Assembly (NCBI GenBank): GCA_031418595.1 | Contig: JANOXU010000267.1 | Coordinates: 1,848 to 65,847, forward strand | Direction of reading: 5' to 3' | Source of the DNA: Burkholderiales bacterium | GTDB lineage: Bacteria; Pseudomonadota; Gammaproteobacteria; Burkholderiales; Burkholderiaceae_C | Length of the DNA stretch: 64,000 bases | Shown: piece by piece, positions 16,959-33,246 of the stretch | Layout of the letters: each line of letters starts with the position of its first letter | How positions within the stretch are numbered: position 1 is the stretch's first letter | Translations under genes and position numbers: made by a program | Notes under the pieces: generated by a model | Told to the model about the DNA's origin: nothing | What the model saw: the letters and a program-made list of their open reading frames with translations, nothing else | The model's database searches: none

Positions 16959-19349
16959 ATGACCCGCCGCTTCGGCCTGTTCCCCAAGTACACGCTGCTC
17001 ATCATCGCCTTGGTGGGTTCGCTGCTGGTGGCCAGCGGCGCGGTGGGCCTGTACTTTTCGTACCACGAGAACCAAGACAGCCTGGTGGCCTTGCAGTTTG
17101 AAAAGGCCCAGGCCGCGGCCACGCGCATCGAGCAATATGTTTTGGACATCGAACAGCAGGTGAGCTGGACCGCGCTGCCCGGCATGGACGGCGGGGCCGA
17201 CCCGGCCGAACAGCGCCGCATCGATTACCTCAAGCTGCTGCGCCAGGCGCCGGCCATCACCGAAGCGGCCTGGATCGATGCCAAGGGCGTGGAACAACTG
17301 CGTGTGTCGCGCCTGGCCATGGATGCCGTGGGCCGCGGCACCGACTACTCTGCCGCCCCGATGTTCACTGTGCCCATGGCCGGCAAGGTGTTCCACAGCC
17401 CGGTGTCGTTTCGCAAAGAGACCGAGCCATACCTGACCGTGTCGCGCCGTGCCGGTCCAGGTGGGGGTGTGACGGCGGTCGACGTGAATTTGAAGTTCGT
17501 GTGGGATGTGGTGTCGCGCATCAAGATTGGTGATGCCGGCCTGGCTTATGTGGTGGACGACAAAGGCACGCTCATCGCCCACCCCGACATCAGCCTGGTG
17601 CTGCAAAAGAGTGACCTGTCCAAACTGCCACAGGTGGCCGTGGCCATCGGCGCGAAGGCGCAGCGCGCAGCGGGTGATGCTGCCATGGTGGAAAAGGCGC
17701 GCAATGCGCGCGGCGGGCGCGTCTTGGCCGCGCACGCCAGCATCCCCACGCTGGGCTGGACGGTGTTTGTCGAGTCGCCCCGCTCTGAAGCGTTCGCACC
17801 GTTGTACGAAACCCTGGCCCGCATGGCCCTGGTGCTGGCGCTGGGCCTGGGGCTGTCGGTGGTGGCCAGCTTCTTCTTGGCGCGCACGCTGGTGCGGCCG
17901 ATTCGCGCCATTCAAGACGGTGCTGAGCGTGTGGCGCAAGGCGATCTGGATCATCACATTGAAGTCAAGAGCCACGACGAGCTGCAAGTGTTGGCCGGTC
18001 AATTCAACCGCATGAGCAGCGAGCTGAAGGCTTCGTACACCGGCCTGGAACGCAAGGTCGATGCGCGCACGGCCGAGCTGCAAGAGGCGTTGGACTACCA
18101 AACCGCCAGCGGTGACGTGCTCAAGGTCATCAGCCAGTCTCCTGGCAGCGTCTTGCCCGTGTTCGAGGTGATCCTGGACAGCGCCAAACGCTTGTTCGGT
18201 GCGTCGATGGCAGCGGTGTTTCGTTACGAGGCGGGCAATGTGGCGATCGTGGCCACACGCAATTGGTCAGCACAGGCCATTGAAGACGCGAAGCGGCACT
18301 ATCCCGGGCCAGTGAACCCTGGCATGGTCACAGGCCGGGCGATCCTGACACGACAAGTGGTGAACCAGCCCGATGTGCGCAACGACCCCCACTACGACAA
18401 GGCCACCGCCGCGGCAGGCGGCTGGCGGCGCCTGCTGGCGGCGCCTTTGCTGCGCGAGGGCGAACCCATTGGCGTGATCACCGTTGCCTGGCACGAACCC
18501 GGCGACACGCCACCGCGCCAGCAGGCCTTGGTGCGCACCTTTGCCGACCAGGCCGTCATTGCCCTTGAAAACGCCCGCCTGTTCAACGACCTGCAAGACA
18601 AAACCCGCCAGCTCGAAGCCGCCAACCGCCACAAGAGCGAATTCCTGGCCAACATGAGCCACGAGTTGCGCACGCCGCTGAACGCCATCATCGGTTTTTC
18701 AGAAGCGCTCATCGAGAAGATGTTTGGCGACGTGAACGACAAGCAGATGGAATACCTGCAAGACATTCACTCCTCGGGCCACCACTTGCTCAGCCTGATC
18801 AACGACGTGCTCGACCTGAGCAAGATCGAGGCTGGGCGCATGGAGCTGGATCTGAGTTGTTTCGATCTGGGCCAGTTGCTGGAGCATTCCACCATGCTGG
18901 TGCGCGAACGTGCCCAGCGCCATGGCTTGGCATTAACCTTAGAGGTGAGCGACGACCTGGCCGAGTGGGTGGGCGACGCGCGCAAGATCAAGCAAGCGGT
19001 GGTGAACCTGCTCAGCAACGCGGTCAAGTTCACGCCCAACGGCGGGCGCGTCACGCTGCGCGCCCGGTTGCTCAACGAATGGCAGGGCCAGGGCGGCGCG
19101 TTTGCGCTGGTGTCGGTGCAAGACACCGGCGTGGGCATTGCACCGGGCGATCAGGAACTGGTGTTCGAGGAATTCCGCCAGGCCGGTGGCGACGTGCTGC
19201 GCAAGAGCGAAGGCACGGGGCTGGGCCTGGCGCTGGTGAAGCGCTTTGTGGAACTGCACGGCGGCAGCGTCACGCTGCAAAGCGCGCCGGGCGCCGGTTC
19301 CACCTTCAGCTTTGTGTTGCCGCAGCATGAATTGAAAGCCCTCCAATGA
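16959..19349 (+). CDS. Sensor histidine kinase: TM-periplasmic Cache-TM-HAMP-GAF-HisKA-HATPase
   Basis: Start MTRRFGLF at 16959; two hydrophobic helices; HAMP (DELQVLAGQFNRM); GAF (LAAPLLREGEPIGVI...FADQAVIALENARLF); H-box FLANMSHELRTP; N/G boxes NAVKFT, DTGVGI, GTGLGL. Confidence 0.92.
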   Translation: MTRRFGLFPKYTLLIIALVGSLLVASGAVGLYFSYHENQDSLVALQFEKAQAAATRIEQYVLDIEQQVSWTALPGMDGGADPAEQRRIDYLKLLRQAPAITEAAWIDAKGVEQLRVSRLAMDAVGRGTDYSAAPMFTVPMAGKVFHSPVSFRKETEPYLTVSRRAGPGGGVTAVDVNLKFVWDVVSRIKIGDAGLAYVVDDKGTLIAHPDISLVLQKSDLSKLPQVAVAIGAKAQRAAGDAAMVEKARNARGGRVLAAHASIPTLGWTVFVESPRSEAFAPLYETLARMALVLALGLGLSVVASFFLARTLVRPIRAIQDGAERVAQGDLDHHIEVKSHDELQVLAGQFNRMSSELKASYTGLERKVDARTAELQEALDYQTASGDVLKVISQSPGSVLPVFEVILDSAKRLFGASMAAVFRYEAGNVAIVATRNWSAQAIEDAKRHYPGPVNPGMVTGRAILTRQVVNQPDVRNDPHYDKATAAAGGWRRLLAAPLLREGEPIGVITVAWHEPGDTPPRQQALVRTFADQAVIALENARLFNDLQDKTRQLEAANRHKSEFLANMSHELRTPLNAIIGFSEALIEKMFGDVNDKQMEYLQDIHSSGHHLLSLINDVLDLSKIEAGRMELDLSCFDLGQLLEHSTMLVRERAQRHGLALTLEVSDDLAEWVGDARKIKQAVVNLLSNAVKFTPNGGRVTLRARLLNEWQGQGGAFALVSVQDTGVGIAPGDQELVFEEFRQAGGDVLRKSEGTGLGLALVKRFVELHGGSVTLQSAPGAGSTFSFVLPQHELKALQ

Positions 19350-23208: not shown

Positions 23209-24075
23209 ATGACCAGTGCCTTTGACCGCAGCGCCGAAGACATCGGCAACATCGTTCACCTGGAGCATGTGAACCTCACCCAGCCAGACCAACGCCTGGC
23301 CACGCAGTTTTATGTGAGCGCATTGGGCCTGACACGCGACCCCTACATGCAGACCGGCACCGACAACATGTGGGTCAACGCCGGGCGCACGCAGTTCCAC
23401 CTGCCCAGCGGCGCGGCGCAGCGTTTGCGCGGTACGGTGAACGTCGTGATTCCCGGCCGCCAGGCGCTGCTGGAGCGCCTGCGCCGCCACAGCGCGGGTT
23501 TGAGCGGCACCTTGTTTCGCTTTGCCGAACATGCCGACCATGTTGAAGCCCAGTGCCCCTGGGGCAACCGCCTGCGCTGCTACGAGCCCGACCCGGCGCG
23601 CTTCGGCGGCGTGCAACTCGGCATTGCCAGCATCGAGTTCGACGTGCCGCACGCCTGCGCCGTGCCCATTGCCGCCTTCTACAGCCAGGTGTTCCGCGCC
23701 CGCGCCAAGCTCAGCGCCACGCCCAGCGGTGCGCCCAGCGCCTGGGTACAGGTGGGCGCGGGGCAGGCGCTGTGGTTCACTGAATCAGCCGCGGTGCCGG
23801 CGCACTATGACGGCCATCACATCCAGCTTTACGTGGCCGACTTTTCCGGCCCGCACCGGCGCCTGGCCGAGCTGGCGCTGGTGAGCGAAGAAAGCAACGC
23901 GCACCAGTACCGCTTCACCGACATCGTCGACCCACAAACGCGCGAGCTGTGCTTCAGGCTCGAACACGAAGTGCGCAGCCTCACGCACCCGATGCACGGC
24001 CGGCCCTTGGTCAACCGCAACCCGCAGCAAAGCGCGCGCCACTACGTGCGCGGTGGTGATGCATTCATGCCCTGA
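23209..24075 (+). CDS. VOC/glyoxalase-like (two-module) hypothetical protein
   Basis: LEHVNL..FYVSALGL, QFHLP, HHIQLY patterns typical of VOC folds; RBS GGAG. Confidence 0.6.
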   Translation: MTSAFDRSAEDIGNIVHLEHVNLTQPDQRLATQFYVSALGLTRDPYMQTGTDNMWVNAGRTQFHLPSGAAQRLRGTVNVVIPGRQALLERLRRHSAGLSGTLFRFAEHADHVEAQCPWGNRLRCYEPDPARFGGVQLGIASIEFDVPHACAVPIAAFYSQVFRARAKLSATPSGAPSAWVQVGAGQALWFTESAAVPAHYDGHHIQLYVADFSGPHRRLAELALVSEESNAHQYRFTDIVDPQTRELCFRLEHEVRSLTHPMHGRPLVNRNPQQSARHYVRGGDAFMP

Positions 24076-24457
24076 GCGGCTTGCCCTGTTCAGGCGTCTG
24101 TTTGACGGCGACGTGCAGCGGGCCAGCATTTCGTTTCGCAACGCGCGGCAGCAAAGTCACCTGCGCCGCAATGTCCACAGCCTGACGGATGCTCGCGCTG
24201 ACGCAGCGCCGAGGAATGAATCGCCAGCCACGGCGTCGTTGGCCACCGCCAGTGCTACCCCTAACATCGAAACGCACGGGACTGCGGCATTGGTGGCAAA
24301 GTAGACGGCCTGTTCTGAGCGGCACGGCGCGCGTGGCCGTAGCGAGCCATGCGCCGTTTGACCTGCGAGATTGATCAGCTGTCACACCATGGTCTGCATT
24401 GACGAAGGTCGGGCACGAATGGTCGCACTGCAGCACAGTGCCGGCCTGCATCTCAGC

Positions 24458-27262
24458 ATGACGGATTCAGCGCCGTCTGGGCGCACGGTCTTCCTCAGCT
24501 ACAACCGCGAAAACGCCACGGCGGCGACGCAACTGCGCGACTGGCTGCGTGATGAAGGCCTGGACGTGTTCATGGACAACGTCCACCTCATCGCCGGCGA
24601 GCCCTGGCTGCAGCGCCTGAAGCAAGAAGTGGCGCAGGCCCGTGCGGTGGTCGTTTTGATGCGCCACGAAGGCCCGCGCGGCTTTGTGCTCGACGAAGTG
24701 AGCTGGTTCCTTGAACGCCACGCGCAGGCGCTGGCCCTGAAGCTGCCCGCGCCGGGTTTGTTTCCGGTTTGTCTGGGCGAGGTACCCGAAGAGCAGGCGC
24801 TCGATGCGCGCGTGCACGCGCTGCTGAAGTTTCAGGTCACGCTTTGGCAACCCGGGCAAGCCATGCCCACCGCTTTGCTCGATGCCCTGCGCAAACTGCT
24901 GCCGTCGGAACACTTCGCGCCCCAGCATTGCCCGTTCCGTGGCCTGGCCACCTTTGAAGAGAGCGACGCCGCGTGGTTCTTCGGCCGCAAGCGCGAAACG
25001 CACGAGGTGACCGACGGCCTGGGCAGCGCGCCCGCAGCCGACGGCACATTCGACCGGCAAGCGCCGGGCCACCGCCGTTATGCGCTGATCAGCGGCGACA
25101 GCGGTTCGGGCAAGTCCTCGCTGCTGCGTGCCGGAGTGTTGCCGCTGCTGCGCGCAGGCGCCCTGTGGTCGCGCACCGGCCTGCGCCACTGGCGCGTCGT
25201 GGGCCCGCTGCGGCCCGGCGCCCGGCCGTTGGCCGAGCTGGAACGCGCACTCAGTGCGATGCTTGACGCGGCCCAGCCCGAGGCGCCGGCTGCGGCCCGG
25301 CTTGCGGCTTTGCGCGGCGATGCCGGCGCGCTGGTTGGCCTGCTCGCCAAGGTTCAGGTTGCGGACACCGGCGTGCTGCTGATCGTTGATCAGATGGAAG
25401 AGCTGCTGCAAACCAGTGTCGATGCGGGCGAGCGGCAGCAGTTTGGCGCGCTGCTGGCCATGGCCTTGCAAACCCCAAGCTGCCCGCTTTACCTGGTCGG
25501 CACCGTGCGGGCCGATGCCCTGGCCGAACTGGACACCTTGGAGCCCGAGTTGGTGCGCGCGCGCAACCGCTGCGGCCTGGTCTATACCTTGCCACGCATC
25601 ACCGAGTCGGGCCTGCGCCTGAGCATTGAAGAGCCGGCGCGCCGCGCGGGCGTCGACGTCAGCGAAGTGGCCGAACTGATTCTGGGCGAGGCGCACAACG
25701 AGCCCGGCGCCTTGGCCTTGGTGCAGCACGCGCTGTGGTCGTTGTGGCGCACGCAGCACCGGCGCGGGCCCGTCACCCGCTTGCTGCGCAGCGACCATGA
25801 AGCCGCCGGCGGCCTGGCCGGCATGCTCAGCCGCGATGCGGATGCCGCCCTGGAGCAGGTGAAGGCAGAGCTGGGCAGCGACGCCGGCGCGATGCAACTG
25901 TTGCGCCAAATGACCTGGGTGGGCGCCGAAGACCGGCTGTTCCGCCGCCGGTTGGGCCGCACCGAGGCCGAGTGGTGGGCCGGTGCGGGCGAGCGCGAAC
26001 GCGGCGCGCGGGTGATCGGCATGCTCTCAGGCCAAAGTGCAGCGACAGCAGATGCTGAACCCGGCATGGCCCCGGCAGCACATTTGCCGCTGTTAGTGAC
26101 CGGCAACGATGGCGGCGCCGAGCCCTACGTGGAGCTGGTGCACGAGATGCTGCTGCGCACGAGTGGGCGTTCCGGTGAGCCGGCGCGGCCGCATTGGCAG
26201 CGGCTGTATGAATTCATCCAGCGCCACTTGAACGAGCTCAAGCTCGAACAGCGCTTGCACGCCGACGTGCACACCTGGCGCCAGCTCAGCTTCTGGCAAC
26301 GCTGGCGCCGCCTGGCCAGCTTCAAAGAGCAGCGCCAATACGCACGCTTGCCGCGTTCAGCCGATGCCAACACGCGGCGCTATTTGGCGTTCAGCCGCAG
26401 CAAGTCGGGCGTGCTGGTGGCCGCTGTGGCGCTGCCCTTGGCTTACCTGGGCGTGGGCAGCTACTTTATTTTCCAGCAGGGCAATATTTTTCCCATCAAC
26501 TACGCCACGCGGCTGCCGCTGTGGGCACTGGGCATGGGCGCCGAACCTGAGTTCGCGCGCCTGCCCGGCGCCACCGCGACCTTTGACTTTGGTTGCGACC
26601 CGGCACGCGACACGGTGGACAGGCAGGCTTGCGGCGGCGGCTACTTGCCGCTGCAACGCGCTTTCAGCCAGCCCATTCGTTGCGACATGGGCCGCCACGA
26701 GGTCAGCTTCGAACAGTTCGATCGTTTCGTTTTCAGCCAGCGACGTGCCGGCGCCGCACAACACCCGTATCCCGCGCCGGGCGAGAAGGTTCGCGGCGAG
26801 CAGCCGGTGATGGAGGTTTCACGCGCCGATGCGCAGGCCTACGCGGCATGGCTAAGCGCGCGCAGCAACCCACCGCAGCGGTATCGGTTGCCGCTGGAAT
26901 GGGAATGGGAATACGCCGCCCGCGCCGGCTCCAGCGGGCCCTACCCGTGGGGCACCGAGTCGCCCGTGGGCCGCGCCAATTTCGACGACAACGGCCCGGC
27001 CACGCCCGCGGCGCGGCCGGTGCGCAGCGGCCAGCCCAATGCCTTCGGCCTGCACCATGTGGTGGGCAATGTGAGCGAATGGGTGGCCGACGATGCCAAC
27101 CCCTTCACGGCCTCGGCGCCGCAGCATGTTTCACGCGGCGGCTCTTTCGCTCAAGGCGCCTCGCGGGTACGGGTGGCGGCGCGCCAGTCCATGGAACCCG
27201 ATCAAGCGGGCGACACGAGCACGGCCACCAACATTGGCTTCAGGCTTTGTCGGGAAAGATGA
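24458..27262 (+). CDS. TIR - nSTAND1 NTPase - transmembrane helix - FGE-sulfatase (SUMF1-like) protein (start 24458; 24419 possible)
   Basis: TIR: VFLSYNRE...FMD...GEPW...FVLDEV. Linker CPFRGLATFEESDAAWFFGR. Walker A GDSGSGKSS; Walker B LIVDQMEE; ELVHEMLL..HWQRL. TM VLVAAVALPLAYLGVGSYFIF. FGE: RLPLEWEWEYAAR, PNAFGLHHVVGNVSEW, RGGSF, IGFRL. Confidence 0.88.
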   Translation: MTDSAPSGRTVFLSYNRENATAATQLRDWLRDEGLDVFMDNVHLIAGEPWLQRLKQEVAQARAVVVLMRHEGPRGFVLDEVSWFLERHAQALALKLPAPGLFPVCLGEVPEEQALDARVHALLKFQVTLWQPGQAMPTALLDALRKLLPSEHFAPQHCPFRGLATFEESDAAWFFGRKRETHEVTDGLGSAPAADGTFDRQAPGHRRYALISGDSGSGKSSLLRAGVLPLLRAGALWSRTGLRHWRVVGPLRPGARPLAELERALSAMLDAAQPEAPAAARLAALRGDAGALVGLLAKVQVADTGVLLIVDQMEELLQTSVDAGERQQFGALLAMALQTPSCPLYLVGTVRADALAELDTLEPELVRARNRCGLVYTLPRITESGLRLSIEEPARRAGVDVSEVAELILGEAHNEPGALALVQHALWSLWRTQHRRGPVTRLLRSDHEAAGGLAGMLSRDADAALEQVKAELGSDAGAMQLLRQMTWVGAEDRLFRRRLGRTEAEWWAGAGERERGARVIGMLSGQSAATADAEPGMAPAAHLPLLVTGNDGGAEPYVELVHEMLLRTSGRSGEPARPHWQRLYEFIQRHLNELKLEQRLHADVHTWRQLSFWQRWRRLASFKEQRQYARLPRSADANTRRYLAFSRSKSGVLVAAVALPLAYLGVGSYFIFQQGNIFPINYATRLPLWALGMGAEPEFARLPGATATFDFGCDPARDTVDRQACGGGYLPLQRAFSQPIRCDMGRHEVSFEQFDRFVFSQRRAGAAQHPYPAPGEKVRGEQPVMEVSRADAQAYAAWLSARSNPPQRYRLPLEWEWEYAARAGSSGPYPWGTESPVGRANFDDNGPATPAARPVRSGQPNAFGLHHVVGNVSEWVADDANPFTASAPQHVSRGGSFAQGASRVRVAARQSMEPDQAGDTSTATNIGFRLCRER

Positions 27263-28914
27263 ACATGCGGCTCAAAGCAATCATGCTGGCATTGGCCACC
27301 GCTGGCGTTTGCGGCGCTGCCTGGGCACAGACCAGCCCACCCGTGCCGGAGCCACCGGCCCAGTTGGTGCCCAGCACCAAGCCGGCGGCACCGCCGGTGG
27401 TCGAGGTGCGGCATTACCTGGTGCTGGGCGTGACGCTGCTCGACGCCGCCGTGGTGCGCGCCGCACTCACCGGGTTGATCGGCCCACGCACGGTGGAAGA
27501 ACTGCACCGCGCCGCGGGCCAGGTGCAGGCGCTGTACGCGCGTGCCGGTTATGGCGCGGTGGTGGTGTACCTGCCGCCGCAAGAAGTGTCGGGCGGCGTC
27601 ATCACCTTGCAGGTGATTGAAGGCCGCTTGTCAGCGGTGCGCGTGGAAGGCGCTGGCCCGGCCTTCGGCGAGGCCGGCATCCTGGCCAGCCTGCCGGCGC
27701 TGCAAGCTGGCCAGACACCGCGCCTGGACCGGGTTGACGCGCAGTTGCGCATGGCCAACGACAACCCGGCCAAACGCACCCGCCTGGTGCTGCTGCCTGG
27801 GCAGCAGCCCGAACAGACCGAGGCCGAGATCGCGGTGGCGCCGGCGCCACGCCGCCAGCTTGGGCTGGAGCTTGATGACAGCGGCACGCCGGCCACCGGG
27901 CGCGCGCACCTGGGCCTGACCTGGCGCGACGCCAATGCGAGCGGCCGCGACGATGTGCTCGAACTGCGCCTGCAAGTCGCGCCCGAACAGCCCAGGCAAT
28001 TCGCGGCGGCCGGCCTGAGCTACCGGCTGCCGCTGTACCGCGCGCGCACCATGCTCGACGCCTTTGCGCTGCTGTCAGACACGCGCAGCGCCAGCATTCC
28101 CACGGCGCTGGGCGAGCTGCGCTTCGCCGGGCGCGGCCATCTGCTGGGGCTGCGCGCGACGCACTACCTGCCGCGGCTGGCGGCGTTTGATGCGCGCCTG
28201 GCATTAGGGCTCGAATACCGCGACCAACGCAACCAATGCGCCATCGGCACCCTGCCTGGCGGGGCCTGCGGCAGCGCGGGCGGTGATTTGGCCATCTTGC
28301 CCTTGACCCTGGAATACAGCCTGGCTGGCGACGCGCTGACGCCGCTGGCCCTGAACCTGGCCTGGGTGCAGGGCCTGGCCGCGGGTGGCGGCCGCGCTGA
28401 CCGCGCCGCGTTCGACGCCGTGCGGCCCGGCGCGCGACCCACCTTCACCGCGCTGCGGGCCCAGTTGAGTGCGCAACAACGCCTGAGCGTCACCGGCTGG
28501 GCCGCCAGCGCGCGCCTGGCCGGGCAATGGGCGGCGCAGCCCTTGGTGCCGGCGATGCAGTTCGGTGCCGGTGGGCGCGCTTCAGTGCGGGGCTACGAGG
28601 AGCGCGAACTCGCGGCCGACCATGGCCTGGCGCTGTCGCTGGAGTTGTCCGCACCCGGTTGGCAGGGCCCGCCCTGGCCGGGCACCACCTTGCGCCCACT
28701 GTTGTTCGTTGACGCCGCCACGCTGCGCAACCGCGACGCCGCCCCTTGCAGCGGCCTGCAGATGCGGTGCGACCTGGCCAGTGCCGGCTTTGGCCTGCGG
28801 CTCGACGCACGCGCGCTCACAGTCAGCCTGGACATCGCCCACGCTCTGCGCAGCGCGGGCACCACCCAGCGCGGGCACACGCGCGGCCACGTCTGGCTGC
28901 GCCTGGTGTATTGA
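27259..28914 (+). CDS. TpsB (ShlB/FhaC/HecB) two-partner secretion outer-membrane transporter
   Basis: Start MNMRLK (ATGA overlap); signal peptide; POTRA (LYARAGYGAVVVYLPPQEV..GVITLQVIEGRL); DDSG; QFGAGGRASVRGY motif; beta-strand C-terminus WLRLVY. Confidence 0.92.
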   Translation: MNMRLKAIMLALATAGVCGAAWAQTSPPVPEPPAQLVPSTKPAAPPVVEVRHYLVLGVTLLDAAVVRAALTGLIGPRTVEELHRAAGQVQALYARAGYGAVVVYLPPQEVSGGVITLQVIEGRLSAVRVEGAGPAFGEAGILASLPALQAGQTPRLDRVDAQLRMANDNPAKRTRLVLLPGQQPEQTEAEIAVAPAPRRQLGLELDDSGTPATGRAHLGLTWRDANASGRDDVLELRLQVAPEQPRQFAAAGLSYRLPLYRARTMLDAFALLSDTRSASIPTALGELRFAGRGHLLGLRATHYLPRLAAFDARLALGLEYRDQRNQCAIGTLPGGACGSAGGDLAILPLTLEYSLAGDALTPLALNLAWVQGLAAGGGRADRAAFDAVRPGARPTFTALRAQLSAQQRLSVTGWAASARLAGQWAAQPLVPAMQFGAGGRASVRGYEERELAADHGLALSLELSAPGWQGPPWPGTTLRPLLFVDAATLRNRDAAPCSGLQMRCDLASAGFGLRLDARALTVSLDIAHALRSAGTTQRGHTRGHVWLRLVY

Positions 28915-28941
28915 CGCCGACTCAACCGCAGGAGAACCGCC

Positions 28942-31900
28942 ATGGCACTGCCTGTTCATCTTCACCTGTCGCGGCTCGCACAGGCTGCGCTGTGTGGCCT
29001 GGCCGCATGGCCGCTTGGCGCCTACGCCGGCGACCTGCTGCTGCCTGTGGCGCCCACGGTGGTGCATGGCCAAGCCCGCATCACCACCACGGGCCAGACC
29101 ATGACGGTGACCAGTGGGCGCAATGCCGCGATCGACTGGCGCAGCTTTTCCATCGGGCCGCAGGCGGCGGTGCGCTTCGAGCAAGCTGATGCTGCCAGCC
29201 AGGTGCTCAACCGCGTGCTCGGGCGCGACCCCTCGCAGATCCTCGGGCGCCTGAGCAGCAACGGCGAGGTCTGGCTCATCAACCCCTACGGTGTGCTGTT
29301 CGGCCGCGACGCGCGGGTCGACGTGGCCGGGCTGGTGGCCTCGACCCTGAACCTGTCCACCGCCGACTGGGCCGCCGGCCGGCGCCGGCTTGATCAACTG
29401 GCTGGCGTGCCGGGTGCGGCCGTCAGCAACGCCGGCACGCTGCGCAGCCGCAGCGGCGGGCGCATCTTGCTGGTGGGCGGCGCCGGGGTGGTCAACGAGG
29501 GCGAGATCGACGCGCCTCAGGGCCGCATCGGCTTGCATGCCGCCGCCAGCGTGGAGCTGGCCGACAGTGCGCAGCCCGACATCGCCGTGCGCGTTTTCGC
29601 GCCAGGCCAGGGTGTGCTCAACCGCGGCGTGCTCAGCGCCGCAGGCGGCGTCATCGACCTGCAAGGCGCGATGGTCAATCAAGCCGGTGTGGTGCGGGCC
29701 GATGGCCTGGCCAGCGGGCCGGGCGGCGCGGTGCTGCTGCGCGCCAGCAACTCGCTGGTGTTTGAGGCGGGCAGCCTGACATCGGCCACCGGCGCGCCGG
29801 GCGGGCGCATTGATCTGCTGGGCGGCACGCAGCTCGTGCAGGGCCGCATCGACGCCGGTTCCGCCACCGGCCTGGGCGGACAGCTCAGCCTGGCCGGGCC
29901 GCAGATCGCGTTGCTGGACGGGGCGGTGCTGCAAGCGGATGGCGCCTTGGGCGGTGGCCTGCTCGCCGTTGGCGCGCCGCACGAAGCCAACGGCCTGCGC
30001 CTGCCGGCAGCGCAAGCGGTGTTTGTGGATCGCGGCGCGCGCCTGTCGGCCGACGCGCTGCACAGCGGTGATGGCGGCAGCATTCGCCTGTGGAGCGACG
30101 GCGCCACGCGCGCCTTTGGCCGCTTCAGTGCCCGCGGTGGCCCCCATGGCGGCAACGGTGGCTTGATTGAAACGTCTGGCCTGGGCTTGGAAGCCAACCC
30201 CGCCGCGGTGGACACTCAGGCGCCACGCGGGCGGGCCGGGCTGTGGCTGCTCGACCCGCTGGACGTTCGCATCGTGTCAGGCAATGGCAGTAACCAGGTC
30301 AGCGCGGGGCCCGACTTCAGCCCGCTGGGGTCGAATGCAAGCATCGGCACCAACACCATCACGAGCGCGCTGGCCAGTGGCGACGTGACCATCAGCACCG
30401 GCGCCACCGGCACACAGGCGGGGACGATCTCGATGAACGACGTGACGCTGAATGCGCCCCTGCCCGCGATCATCACAGGGGCCGGCAGCCTGATCGTGGA
30501 ACGCACGCTCACATTGAATGCCGCTTCGGGCATTGTCCTGACCGATGCCAGCATTCAGTCGAGCAGCGGTCGACTGCACCTGCGCTTGCTCGCCGGTTCA
30601 GGCGCCGCCGACGGCATCAGCCTGAATAACGCCAGCATCAACGTGCGGGGCGACCTCACGATGCGCGGGGCGAGTCTCAGCACCCAGGCTTCAATCGTCA
30701 TTGCGCGGCAGATCGACGTGCAGGCCAACCGGATCACGCTGGGCACGCCGTCGTCGATTGAAGGCATTGAGCCCACGCTGTTCGCCACGGGCGCGGGCAA
30801 TGCGCTGGTCGTGCGCGGCCTGGTTGACAACGTCGCTGTCTTTGACAGCGTGGCCGGCAGCAGCGCCCTGGCCACGGGTGATTCAGGCCGCTGGCTGCTC
30901 TATGCGCGCGACCCGGCTAACACCAGGCTCGATGGGCTGGCCTACCAGTTCAAGCAGTACGGTGCCATCTACCCGGCGCCAGCGCTGGGCGATGGCAATG
31001 CAAACGGCCTGCTCTACGCCACGCAGCCGGTGCTGGGCGTTGCCTCGAGCCTGCCACTGAACAAGGTGTATGACGGCAGCCGCACGCTGGGGTTGTCGGC
31101 GGCCCAGCTCGACACGTTGGCCCTGACCGGCTTTCTGCCCGGTGATGCGCCAAGCGTGCGCACCGGCCTGATCGCCAGCCTGAGCTACGACAGCCGCAAC
31201 GCGGGCGCTGCCGTGCCGATCACGGCCAGCCTGAAAGGCGAGCTGCCAGCGGTGTTTGATGGGGACAGTCCGGTCTACGGCTACGTCTTCGCGGGCCAGG
31301 GGCTGGCCGGCAACATCAACCCCGCTGCGCTCACCTACCGCGCCCAACCCCTGACCGTGGTGGCCGGCACGGGCTGGCCCGCGCTGGCCGGAACAGTCAC
31401 AGGCTTCGTGCCCGGTGAGTCGCAGGCCAGCGCCACCAGCGGCACGCTGCGCTTCACAACCGCGGCCGGGCCAGCGTCGCCGGCCGGCGCCTACGCGGTG
31501 CAAGGCGTGGGCTTGACGGCGGCGAACTACACCTTCGTGAATGATCCGGCCAACGCGCAGGCCCTGCGCGTGCTGCCGGCCGGCAGCAACGAAGGTCTGC
31601 CACGTCCCACCTTGCCCAGCGACAGGCCAGCGCAGCCTGACCAGCCAGGCAACCCGCGCTTGACGGTGGTGGAGCCGATCTCAGCGGCCGGGTTTGCGCC
31701 GCTCGATTCGAGCCGGCTCCCGGGCCGGCAGCTCGATGCGGCGTTTCGTTCGCGCGAGCTGGCCCTGGCGCGCCCCTTCCGCGCCGGCAAAGCCATGCTT
31801 GACGCCAACCCCAGCCTGGCCGACTTGCCCGATTGCGCCGACGTGGGCGGTGCCGTGCAGGGCGAGTGCATCGTCACGCCGGCACTCAAGATCGCCATGC

Positions 31901-33246
31901 AGCGGCTGTGGACGGTGCAGCCGCAATGGGCGGGTGAGTGGGCACTGCTGGATCGGGACGACTTGTTCGACCGCATGGTCTGGCGTGGTGACATCGACCT
32001 GTCAAAGTTCGGGGCGCAGGCTCTCGTCCTGCCGGGCGATAACACGCTCGCGCTGACCACGCCTTCTGGCCTGGGCGGGAGCAGCACACTGACGCCTCAA
32101 ATGCTGGTCATGGCCGCCGCCGGGCAGACCGGCGCCGCCGCTGGCGTGCAAGGGGGAGCTGCCGCGCCGCCGGCGGTCATCGTCGCCAGCGCAGCAACCC
32201 CCGAACAGCTGATCGCCATGGCGCCCACCGCGGCAGTGAATGCGCCAGGCAATGCGCCGGTGTGCGAAACGCCCAAGCAACAGCTCAGCGGCGAATGCCA
32301 GCGTCAAACCGAGTTGGAAGCCTTACGCGGCGCGCTCCAGCGCTGCGTATCGGAGCCGCGTGACAAGCAACCGGCCTGCCTGTTTTCGGAGCAGGTGAAG
32401 TTCCACCTGCAGCAGCGTGAACGCGAGGCGCGTTTTCTCAGCGTCACCCTGCAACAGCAGGACGCACGCCAGGCCACGCTGCCCGACATTCGGCGCAAGT
32501 GGGCGCTGGTGATCGGCGTCGAGCATTACCCCAAGGTCGCGCTGGGTGGCCAACCCGTGCGCATGCCCAACGCCGGCCACGACGCGCGGGCGGTGGCGGC
32601 CGAGCTGCGTGGCGGCTTTGGCTACATCACGTCAGAACTGGTCAACCCCAGCCGCGCCCAGGTGGTGCAGCGGCTGAACATGTTGGCGGCCGTGGCGCAA
32701 CCGAACGACTCGCTGCTCATCTTCTTCTCGGGCTACGGCTTCAGCATCGCGCAGGGCGACGACGCCGTTTGGGCCTTGAGCGATGCCGACCCGCGTGATG
32801 GCCGCACCGTCTTGTCACACGCCGATCTGGCCAAGCTGCTCGGCTTGATCGACGCGCGCCAGGTGGCATTGATTTCCGACAGCTCGCTGGCCGGGCGCCT
32901 GCGCGTCAAGCCGGTGGACTACAACGCCTTGGCCGCGCCCGACGCGGTTGGGCTGCTCGACCGCCGCGCCACGGTGGCGCTGACATCGGGCGGCAACCTG
33001 CCCATGAGCACCATGCAGGGGCAGGGCTTGTCGGACTTCGCGGCGCAGTTGGTGGGCGTGCTGCGCCGGGTGAAGACCTGGCACGTGGGTGGGCGCATCT
33101 TCCGCGAAGTGCAAACGCCCTTGATCCAGGCCGGCCGGCCCTTCGTGCCGCAGTACGGGGCCGCATCGGAACGCCTGCACCAGCCGCGCGCGGACTACAT
33201 CTTCGAACGCCGTGAACTGCAAGCCGAAGTACCGGCCAAGCCGTGA
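28942..33246 (+). CDS. TpsA exoprotein: HMW1-type TPS domain, beta-helix, YDG and MBG repeats, Cys-rich linker, C-terminal caspase-like (C14) domain with substituted dyad
   Basis: Signal peptide; IDWRSFSIG..VLNRV..SNGEVWLINPYG; GGLIETSG..WLLDP; KVYDG; INPAALT...AANYTF; KWALVIGVEHY..PNAGHDA..LIFFSGYG..LISDSS. Confidence 0.85.
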   Translation: MALPVHLHLSRLAQAALCGLAAWPLGAYAGDLLLPVAPTVVHGQARITTTGQTMTVTSGRNAAIDWRSFSIGPQAAVRFEQADAASQVLNRVLGRDPSQILGRLSSNGEVWLINPYGVLFGRDARVDVAGLVASTLNLSTADWAAGRRRLDQLAGVPGAAVSNAGTLRSRSGGRILLVGGAGVVNEGEIDAPQGRIGLHAAASVELADSAQPDIAVRVFAPGQGVLNRGVLSAAGGVIDLQGAMVNQAGVVRADGLASGPGGAVLLRASNSLVFEAGSLTSATGAPGGRIDLLGGTQLVQGRIDAGSATGLGGQLSLAGPQIALLDGAVLQADGALGGGLLAVGAPHEANGLRLPAAQAVFVDRGARLSADALHSGDGGSIRLWSDGATRAFGRFSARGGPHGGNGGLIETSGLGLEANPAAVDTQAPRGRAGLWLLDPLDVRIVSGNGSNQVSAGPDFSPLGSNASIGTNTITSALASGDVTISTGATGTQAGTISMNDVTLNAPLPAIITGAGSLIVERTLTLNAASGIVLTDASIQSSSGRLHLRLLAGSGAADGISLNNASINVRGDLTMRGASLSTQASIVIARQIDVQANRITLGTPSSIEGIEPTLFATGAGNALVVRGLVDNVAVFDSVAGSSALATGDSGRWLLYARDPANTRLDGLAYQFKQYGAIYPAPALGDGNANGLLYATQPVLGVASSLPLNKVYDGSRTLGLSAAQLDTLALTGFLPGDAPSVRTGLIASLSYDSRNAGAAVPITASLKGELPAVFDGDSPVYGYVFAGQGLAGNINPAALTYRAQPLTVVAGTGWPALAGTVTGFVPGESQASATSGTLRFTTAAGPASPAGAYAVQGVGLTAANYTFVNDPANAQALRVLPAGSNEGLPRPTLPSDRPAQPDQPGNPRLTVVEPISAAGFAPLDSSRLPGRQLDAAFRSRELALARPFRAGKAMLDANPSLADLPDCADVGGAVQGECIVTPALKIAMQRLWTVQPQWAGEWALLDRDDLFDRMVWRGDIDLSKFGAQALVLPGDNTLALTTPSGLGGSSTLTPQMLVMAAAGQTGAAAGVQGGAAAPPAVIVASAATPEQLIAMAPTAAVNAPGNAPVCETPKQQLSGECQRQTELEALRGALQRCVSEPRDKQPACLFSEQVKFHLQQREREARFLSVTLQQQDARQATLPDIRRKWALVIGVEHYPKVALGGQPVRMPNAGHDARAVAAELRGGFGYITSELVNPSRAQVVQRLNMLAAVAQPNDSLLIFFSGYGFSIAQGDDAVWALSDADPRDGRTVLSHADLAKLLGLIDARQVALISDSSLAGRLRVKPVDYNALAAPDAVGLLDRRATVALTSGGNLPMSTMQGQGLSDFAAQLVGVLRRVKTWHVGGRIFREVQTPLIQAGRPFVPQYGAASERLHQPRADYIFERRELQAEVPAKP

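Follow-up and report, generated by a model that had tools for sequence, protein, structure and literature searches.

Organization of the three-gene operon

The DNA analysed here, called the window, is the whole 64,000-nt stretch (about 68% G+C) taken from contig JANOXU010000267.1 of a Burkholderiales bacterium. The element under study is a three-gene operon on its + strand, which encodes a TIR-nSTAND1 receptor with a predicted transmembrane (TM) helix and an FGE-sulfatase-like domain (FGS) behind it (gene A), the transporter TpsB of a two-partner secretion (TPS) pair (gene B), and the exoprotein TpsA, which ends in a pseudo-caspase domain (gene C). The genes and the spacer ahead of them are arranged as follows.

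24076..24457, + strand: spacer ahead of gene A, about 380 bp, presumed to serve as promoter/leader
24458..27262, + strand: gene A, TIR-nSTAND1-TM-FGS, predicted single-pass inner-membrane receptor, 934 aa
27259..28914, + strand: gene B, TpsB outer-membrane transporter, 551 aa (POTRA_2, ShlB, Omp85)
28942..33246, + strand: gene C, TpsA exoprotein, 1434 aa (TPS, adhes_NPXG, MBG_2, Peptidase_C14)

A preliminary description, made from the letters of the window, had reported three tightly spaced, co-oriented genes, and all of these features were present: the open reading frames (ORFs), the overlap of the gene A stop with the gene B start in an ATGA at 27259-27262, and a gap of 27 nt between gene B and gene C with CAGGAG preceding the TpsA start. 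The gene-free spacer of 380 bp and the convergent kdgK-like PfkB gene, which starts 23 bp beyond TpsA, were found as it had placed them. The preceding gene stops at 24075, with a terminator-like hairpin and T-run at 24071-24094. In the terminator scan, only this hairpin and one chance site within gene A were detected, and no sigma-70 consensus was found in the promoter scan of the spacer upstream of gene A.

Gene A encodes a predicted single-pass TIR-nSTAND1 receptor

Four parts were recognized in the gene A product.

24488..24781, + strand: TIR domain (Pfam TIR_2), residues 11-108, candidate catalytic Glu80
24932..26284, + strand: nSTAND1 NTPase module (Pfam PF20703), residues 159-609
26411..26473, + strand: transmembrane helix predicted by hydropathy, residues 652-672
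26687..27250, + strand: FGE-sulfatase-like ectodomain (FGS, C-type-lectin fold; Pfam), predicted periplasmic, non-enzymatic

The TIR_2 match (PF13676) scored 45.8 bits against a cutoff of 28, the nSTAND1 match 236 bits against a cutoff of 27.1 (E 1e-69), and the FGE-sulfatase match (PF03781), covering residues 744-931, 111.5 bits (E 7e-32). In an alignment of 11 gene A homologues reaching down to 34% identity, the Walker A motif GxSGSGKSS (residues 213-221; GDSGSGKS in the window), the Walker B motif DQxEEL (residues 311-316; LLIVDQMEEL from residue 307 in the window) and E80 of the TIR domain were invariant, E80 being equated with the catalytic Glu of solved TIRs by motif only. By analogy, this TIR domain is expected to consume or convert NAD+, and weak PADLOC/NCBIfam matches to the TIR regions of SAVED_TIR, ThsB and ThcB4 were observed.

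One hydrophobic helix was predicted at residues 652-672 (Kyte-Doolittle 1.92 over 19 residues), with four K/R on its N-side and one on its C-side, which would place the TIR domain and the NTPase in the cytoplasm and the FGE-like domain in the periplasm. A hydrophobic segment occurs at the equivalent position in 10 of the 11 homologues, and the AlphaFold2 (AF2) model of gene A shows a long helix at 637-663 and a confident cytoplasmic part; the AF2 models used here are shallow (built from 6 and 11 sequences) and too weak for residue-level conclusions in FGS and in the TpsA C-terminus. The N-in/C-out topology given in the preliminary description thus has hydropathy and positive-inside bias in agreement behind it, and it stays a prediction from these two signals only.

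The ectodomain contains four Cys. It has the FGE-sulfatase fold match but scored far under the cutoffs of the enzyme equivalogs in NCBIfam (PvdO, 58 against 500; GldK, 52 against 350; EgtB, 30 against 360), and the residues following RGGSF are AQGASRVRVAAR, with no Cys there, so that the active-site Cys pair of FGE is absent, indicating a lectin-type domain rather than an FGE enzyme. Its earlier assignment as non-enzymatic is therefore upheld. The FGS domain is not hypervariable (dN/dS about 0.20), and no template repeat of a diversity-generating retroelement (DGR) for the FGE region was found anywhere in the 5.5-Mb assembly of the window genome.

Alternative starts of gene A lie up to 29 codons upstream (TTG 24371, ATG 24389 and ATG 24419), and the candidate ATG 24419 is preceded by GAAGG. 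N-terminal extensions of up to about 45 residues were observed in close gene A homologues; they align poorly with 24371-24457.

TpsB and the TpsA exoprotein

Gene B was matched by POTRA_2 (46.9 bits) and ShlB (97.3 bits) in Pfam, and in gene C the following parts were recognized.

29074..29664, + strand: TPS secretion domain, residues 45-241 (PF05860, TIGR01901)
31051..31548, + strand: YDG/MBG Ig-like adhesin-type domains, residues 704-869 (MBG_2)
31567..32181, + strand: Ala/Leu/Pro/Gly-rich, fast-evolving linker, residues 876-1080
32182..32481, + strand: helical pre-caspase segment with two C-x10-C pairs, 1108/1119 and 1135/1146 (Cys positions, AF2 helices)
32482..33243, + strand: C-terminal pseudo-caspase (p20-like) domain (Peptidase_C14, Yca1 alignment, Foldseek)
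32734-32736, + strand: codon of Tyr1265, in place of the catalytic His
32884-32886, + strand: codon of Ser1315, in place of the catalytic Cys

The TPS domain of TpsA scored 98.9 bits with PF05860 (E 5.7e-28) and 78.2 bits with TIGR01901 (adhes_NPXG), and its NPxG motif is NPYG at residue 114; judged from these domains, gene B and gene C constitute a two-partner secretion (type Vb) pair. Within the clade of the window, the dN/dS of the TPS domain was 0.26-0.35. MBG_2 was detected in the shaft at E 6e-10 and YDG lay under its cutoff. The linker at residues 876-1080 has no Pfam match, is 40-45% identical to its orthologues and showed a dN/dS of 0.70-0.75.

The six Cys of mature TpsA form three C-x10-C pairs just ahead of the pseudo-caspase, namely 965/976, 1108/1119 and 1135/1146 (31834-31869, 32263-32298 and 32344-32379 in the window). 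The pairs 1108/1119 and 1135/1146 are kept in active-caspase relatives, and the pre-caspase segment is conserved in the outgroup described below. In the periplasm, these pairs may form disulfides that each staple a small loop.

No VENN motif and no pretoxin Pfam match was found in TpsA. A reading of TpsA as a toxin of the contact-dependent inhibition (CDI) type was rejected, there being no VENN motif, no polymorphic C-terminus and no immunity gene, the convergent PfkB gene following instead.

The pseudo-caspase domain of TpsA

Residues 1185-1274 of TpsA were matched by Peptidase_C14 (PF00656) at 36.6 bits against a cutoff of 21.4. In the AF2 model of residues 1081-1434 the confidence was low (pLDDT 56; core 65-88), and the top 50 PDB matches of this model in Foldseek were all caspases, metacaspases or paracaspases, the best being 3bij (E 2e-8). 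Tyr1265 aligns with the catalytic His of the yeast metacaspase Yca1 (4F6O), and the motifs YYAGHG and ISDSC[YF]SG of relatives at 33-37% identity are replaced in the window by FFSGYG and ISDSSLAG. For a count of the dyad, 158 relatives were collected with HMMER from 1.84 billion representatives and from earlier matches. The His-Cys dyad was kept in all 151 outgroup sequences and was lost in all 7 members of the clade that contains the window (the ingroup), where Tyr is combined with Ser, Thr or Ala, so that the claim of a pseudo-caspase, first made for the window, extends to its whole clade.

An active protease acting through Ser1315 was rejected as a candidate: sister lineages carry Ala or Thr in place of this Ser, all of them have Tyr instead of the His, and the Ala found in two ingroup lineages rules out a Ser-based activity.

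The ingroup is monophyletic (support 1.0) and is carried by a stem branch of 1.55 against a median of 0.15. Inside the clade, no part of TpsA is better conserved than the pseudo-caspase (77-82% identity, dN/dS 0.15-0.17). The sequences point to a single loss of the dyad during a burst of change, with the domain strongly conserved since then.

A domain of this kind might act as a decoy, the dead caspase soaking up phage or competitor inhibitors or binders of active caspases while the receptor is unrelated to it. Inactive enzyme domains have been proposed as decoys in related conflict systems (PMC7159879), but the window genome encodes no further caspase of this type that a decoy could protect, and the coupling to gene A would be left unexplained, which makes a decoy exceedingly improbable.

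Linkage of the three genes in close homologues

In the pattern-based scans of the collection, the gene A family comprised seven clusters at 61-99% identity, followed by a gap to 40% or less. Besides the window, tpsB and tpsA genes stand directly after gene A in four close clusters (P0005, P0006, P0008 and P0009), whose TpsA proteins all carry TPS, YDG/MBG and Peptidase_C14 domains. The identities to the window were 64-72% for gene A, 67-72% for gene B and 54-66% for gene C, and across the trio loci the junction between A and B varied from -4 to +2 nt and that between B and C from 23 to 31 nt with GGAG. The genes flanking the trio are different at each of the close-cluster loci, and in the ingroup neither module was seen without its partner. 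The linkage of gene A to TpsB/TpsA in other genomes, on which the preliminary description had staked its reading, was thus found, among close homologues at 61-72% identity, in 5/5 lineages with readable context. In the lineage of TpsA P0130 (L168), which is syntenic, downstream PfkB and MR_MLE genes are common with the window.

In the metagenomic lineage L004, the cassette is flanked by a PhdYeFM/PIN toxin-antitoxin pair on one side and a DUF3701-integrase gene on the other (1400-2028 and 17826-19270), a context that hints that the three genes are able to move as an island.

The ingroup consists of about seven lineages of environmental Burkholderiales, mostly from metagenomes, and among 401 genomes of the same family an ingroup gene A was found only in the window genome, where each module is single-copy in the 5.5-Mb assembly. 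Three same-genus genomes lack this ingroup gene A, and same-genus genomes lack the flanking genes as well. The scan of metagenome contigs with gene A gave generic FGE-domain matches only and no new cassette, and in plasmids gene A had no match at E 1e-20.

A 288-aa ORF at 23209-24075 (+), directly upstream of the operon, has no Pfam match, and no homologue of it was found in three same-genus genomes or in related cassette loci.

A sister TpsB/TpsA-caspase module in the same family

Giant TpsA-like ORFs ending in a His-Cys caspase were observed in about two dozen of 400 sampled family genomes (about 6%), often in 2-3 copies, and relatives of the TpsA-caspase form more than 130 clusters at 50% identity (E below 1e-30). 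In 15 outgroup TpsB/TpsA-caspase loci, located in other genomes of the same family (L013 and L171-L182 among the loci), TIR, STAND and FGE were present in 0/15. An OmpA-family gene adjoins tpsA in 12 of these loci, a gene encoding a Ser/Thr kinase with a TM helix and DUF4384 is adjacent in five, accompanied in two of these by genes encoding PP2C and FHA/T6SS_FHA_C proteins; the loci without the kinase have unrelated upstream genes only. The kinase (kinase domain 57-275, TM 404-423, DUF4384 500-569) shares the single-pass layout of gene A. In L178 (G173:C20:15001-35000), two full TpsA-caspase genes stand in tandem behind a single tpsB and are followed by one OmpA-like gene.

This sister module resembles that of the window in its TpsB (43-45% identity), TPS domain (about 50%) and caspase domain (31-43%), and in the nearby gene for a signalling protein that crosses the membrane once and whose ectodomain is of a caspase-associated kind. 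It differs in its active His-Cys dyad, its OmpA-like partner, its kinase output and its FHA/PP2C proteins of the type VI secretion system (T6SS) type, and it has no TIR, STAND or FGS. The loss of the dyad, the loss of the OmpA-like gene and the gain of gene A coincide exactly. No paper describing this kinase/TpsB/TpsA-orthocaspase/OmpA module was found.

The outgroup loci bear on the possibility of signalling in trans, in which the pseudo-caspase end of one cell's filament is presented or delivered to a neighbouring cell in the manner of CdiA and is read in the periplasm of that cell by its FGS-STAND-TIR receptor, for kin recognition, contact signalling or altruistic death. The outgroup OmpA-like gene directly after tpsA occupies the position of an immunity gene and tpsA is sometimes in tandem; long-filament TPS systems such as CDI and BcpA commonly act between cells, and a ligand and a receptor that are both conserved are expected of a self-recognition pair. 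However, neither a VENN/pretoxin motif nor a variable C-terminus nor an immunity pair is present, the C-terminal domain is the most conserved one rather than polymorphic, and no route is known by which a folded domain the size of a caspase could enter the periplasm of another cell. Signalling in trans is therefore judged unlikely.

Gene A homologues without TpsB/TpsA

TIR-nSTAND1-TM-FGE homologues at 31-40% identity have no TpsB/TpsA nearby, as examined in the contexts L008-L012, L016, L186-L190 and G286. In the scan of genome contigs, one full-length relative of gene A was found among the matches listed, and it stands alone. The solo homologue in G578 (L187:6800-9800, 38% identity) is a classical DGR target at its FGE end, with a 131-nt pair of template repeat (TR) and variable repeat in which 18 of the 26 mismatches fall on TR adenines; a reverse transcriptase is encoded about 0.8 kb downstream. 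On this sequence comparison, the linkage of gene A to tpsBA is restricted to one narrow clade.

At L016:14878-17595, a TPR-CHAT (caspase-like) gene lies 2 kb downstream of a solo gene A homologue, a Fic-HTH gene standing in between. This is a second and independent case in which a receptor of this type is associated with a protein of the caspase superfamily.

Both modules are therefore found apart elsewhere, and solo relatives of gene A stand in classical conflict contexts (the DGR and the nearby TPR-CHAT gene), as would be expected if two independent functions only travelled together, a TIR-STAND-FGS sensor of foreign molecules and an adhesin TPS pair with a decayed caspase. Against this stand the 5/5 linkage in differing flanks, where stop and start codons overlap or nearly touch, the lack of any ingroup module without its partner, the exact coincidence of the two losses and the gain, and the finding that purifying selection in TpsA is strongest on the supposedly decayed domain. 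Mere co-travel is thus quite unlikely, and the three genes probably form one functional unit.

Comparison with known systems

Systems in which an effector, a STAND module and FGS are joined have already been described as "NTPase-FGS" conflict systems (Kaur, Burroughs, Iyer, Aravind, eLife 2021, PMC8195603), with an N-terminal TIR, nSTAND1 and a C-terminal FGS sensor in one polypeptide, as in gene A. In that work, FGS is treated as an intracellular sensor that is often diversified by DGRs, and partners are linked via EAD adaptor domains, whereas in the window FGS lies beyond a TM helix (hydropathy prediction), is conserved, has no DGR and has a TPS pair as its partner. No mention of two-partner secretion, haemagglutinin or FhaC was found in the eLife papers of the Aravind group. 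The antigen sensors of multicellular bacteria, which combine STAND with a C-type lectin (CLec) domain and are DGR-diversified (Dore et al., PNAS 2024, PMC10907252), are also similar in having STAND (nSTAND1 or NACHT) and a C-terminal CLec/FGE domain, some of them with TIR and some predicted to be periplasmic; the clade of the window differs from them by the lack of a reverse transcriptase or template repeat and by its slow-evolving lectin domain.

YS-type pseudo-orthocaspases are mostly cyanobacterial or alphaproteobacterial, with 2/667 being betaproteobacterial (Klemencic et al. 2019, PMC6426788). As in the pseudo-caspase of TpsA, their p20 fold is conserved and the His and Cys of the dyad have become Tyr and Ser. 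Unlike it, they are not located on TPS exoproteins; the change in TpsA has an independent origin within a clade of His-Cys proteins, with Ser, Thr or Ala in place of the Cys.

For the TPS pair, the likeness to FhaB/FhaC and CdiA/CdiB includes the POTRA-bearing TpsB, the N-terminal TPS domain, the long shaft and the periplasmic hold of the C-terminal part (covered in part by PMC8263021). In contrast to FhaB and CdiA, TpsA of the window has no prodomain, VENN, toxin or immunity features, it ends in a pseudo-caspase, and a TIR-STAND receptor is co-encoded. A STAND switch with an effector and a TIR domain with a conserved Glu are also shared with the cytosolic STAND (Avs) and TIR (Thoeris) defences, in which phage proteins are sensed in the cytoplasm; gene A differs from these in having its sensor domain beyond the TM helix, and no PADLOC system model matches.

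Each module is thus already known, and what appears to be new is their combination, which is conserved and very rare. A TPS-caspase or TIR-STAND-TPS combination was not described in the full-text literature searched, including the work on conflict systems, DGRs and orthocaspases. The novelty claimed in the preliminary description consequently holds for the combination; it does not hold for the architecture of gene A alone, which was known from PMC8195603 and PMC10907252.

Discussion

Proposed origin and mechanism

The proposed mechanism starts from what the sequences show, namely the domains present, the topology signals, the conserved linkage, the loss of the dyad and the pattern of selection. 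The operon would derive from the commoner Burkholderiales module, in which TpsB exports a giant TpsA filament with a terminal active orthocaspase, accompanied by a periplasmic OmpA-like protein and often by a single-pass Ser/Thr kinase with a periplasmic DUF4384. In the clade of the window, the His-Cys dyad was lost, the domain nonetheless being subject to strong purifying selection; the OmpA-like partner would have been lost as well, and a single-pass TIR-nSTAND1 receptor with a periplasmic FGS would have been gained in front, translationally coupled to the TPS pair. FGS and the pseudo-caspase would work together, because the module swap and the dyad loss coincide exactly and because FGE-sulfatase (33/671, PMC3501461) and DUF4384 (PMC7475262) turn up elsewhere as repeated fusion partners of prokaryotic caspase domains. 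The slow evolution of FGS and of the pseudo-caspase, in contrast to the FGS of relatives that is diversified by DGRs, suggests a fixed self-ligand rather than a variable foreign one.

We tentatively propose, and with some doubt, that within the periplasm FGS may recognize the end of the filament that carries the pseudo-caspase and so gate a STAND-controlled TIR NADase. The adhesin-like N-terminal shaft of TpsA would be exported by TpsB, while the pseudo-caspase domain would remain in, or cross, the periplasm like the C-terminal parts of FhaB and CdiA, which are held there before processing or delivery. In the periplasm it would be the conserved self-ligand of the FGS ectodomain. An altered contact would then switch the STAND NTPase to an oligomeric state, the candidate triggers being pulling or completed export upon surface binding by a phage or a neighbour cell, proteolysis, and envelope damage. 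The TIR domains would thereby assemble as an NAD+-consuming or signal-making enzyme, leading to growth arrest or cell death. Of these parts, we infer the contact between FGS and the pseudo-caspase, the location of the C-terminal domain, the trigger and the output. The surface display of the caspase domain envisaged in the preliminary description is unproven; on the model of FhaB and CdiA, this domain may instead be retained in the periplasm.

The passage of TpsA through the same compartment as the sensor domain, together with the translational coupling of gene A to gene B, would also suit a role in secretion or envelope quality control or in addiction, in which the receptor monitors unexported or misfolded TpsA and arrests the cell upon export failure or disturbance of the cassette. 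Death by TIR-STAND would however be an extreme response to a secretion defect, the cassette contains no chaperone or protease genes, and to our knowledge there is no precedent, so that only a very low probability is given to this role.

Several points weigh against the reading of the operon as one unit in which FGS senses the pseudo-caspase. The roughly seven ingroup lineages are all closely related, and the conserved gene order could partly reflect shared descent. The solo homologues show that gene A is able to work without a TPS partner. The operon has housekeeping and catabolic genes as its neighbours rather than a defence island, and its proteins matched none of the system models of PADLOC-DB 2.0, giving weak matches at the domain level only (SAVED_TIR 30.9 bits, ThsB 16.4 bits, caspase 27.9 bits). 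AF2 modelled the FGS region of gene A poorly (pLDDT 30-55), and the location of the TpsA C-terminus, which may stay periplasmic, is taken only from the FhaB/CdiA analogy.

Implications

In the known STAND and TIR defences, invaders are sensed inside the cell. A comparison of the operon with an outside-in immune receptor like Toll/Spaetzle, in which a TIR receptor senses the state of a self-made filament and the dead caspase is its endogenous periplasmic ligand, is doubtful; if it were true, attack on or engagement of the filament would trigger the STAND-driven TIR before entry into the cytoplasm. The importance of the finding is tempered by its rarity, the system being confined to about seven, mostly metagenomic, lineages.

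The operon represents a natural experiment in module swapping, the TPS-caspase chassis being wired to a kinase/T6SS-type output in relatives and to TIR-STAND here, with a protease turned into a strongly conserved non-catalytic domain at exactly the transition from kinase to TIR-STAND. The role of pseudo-caspases and of lectin-fold FGS domains in conflict systems thereby becomes directly testable. A periplasm-facing TIR-STAND sensor linked to an exported filament would show how events at the cell surface, such as phage adsorption, contact or envelope damage, are coupled to NAD+-based death or arrest.

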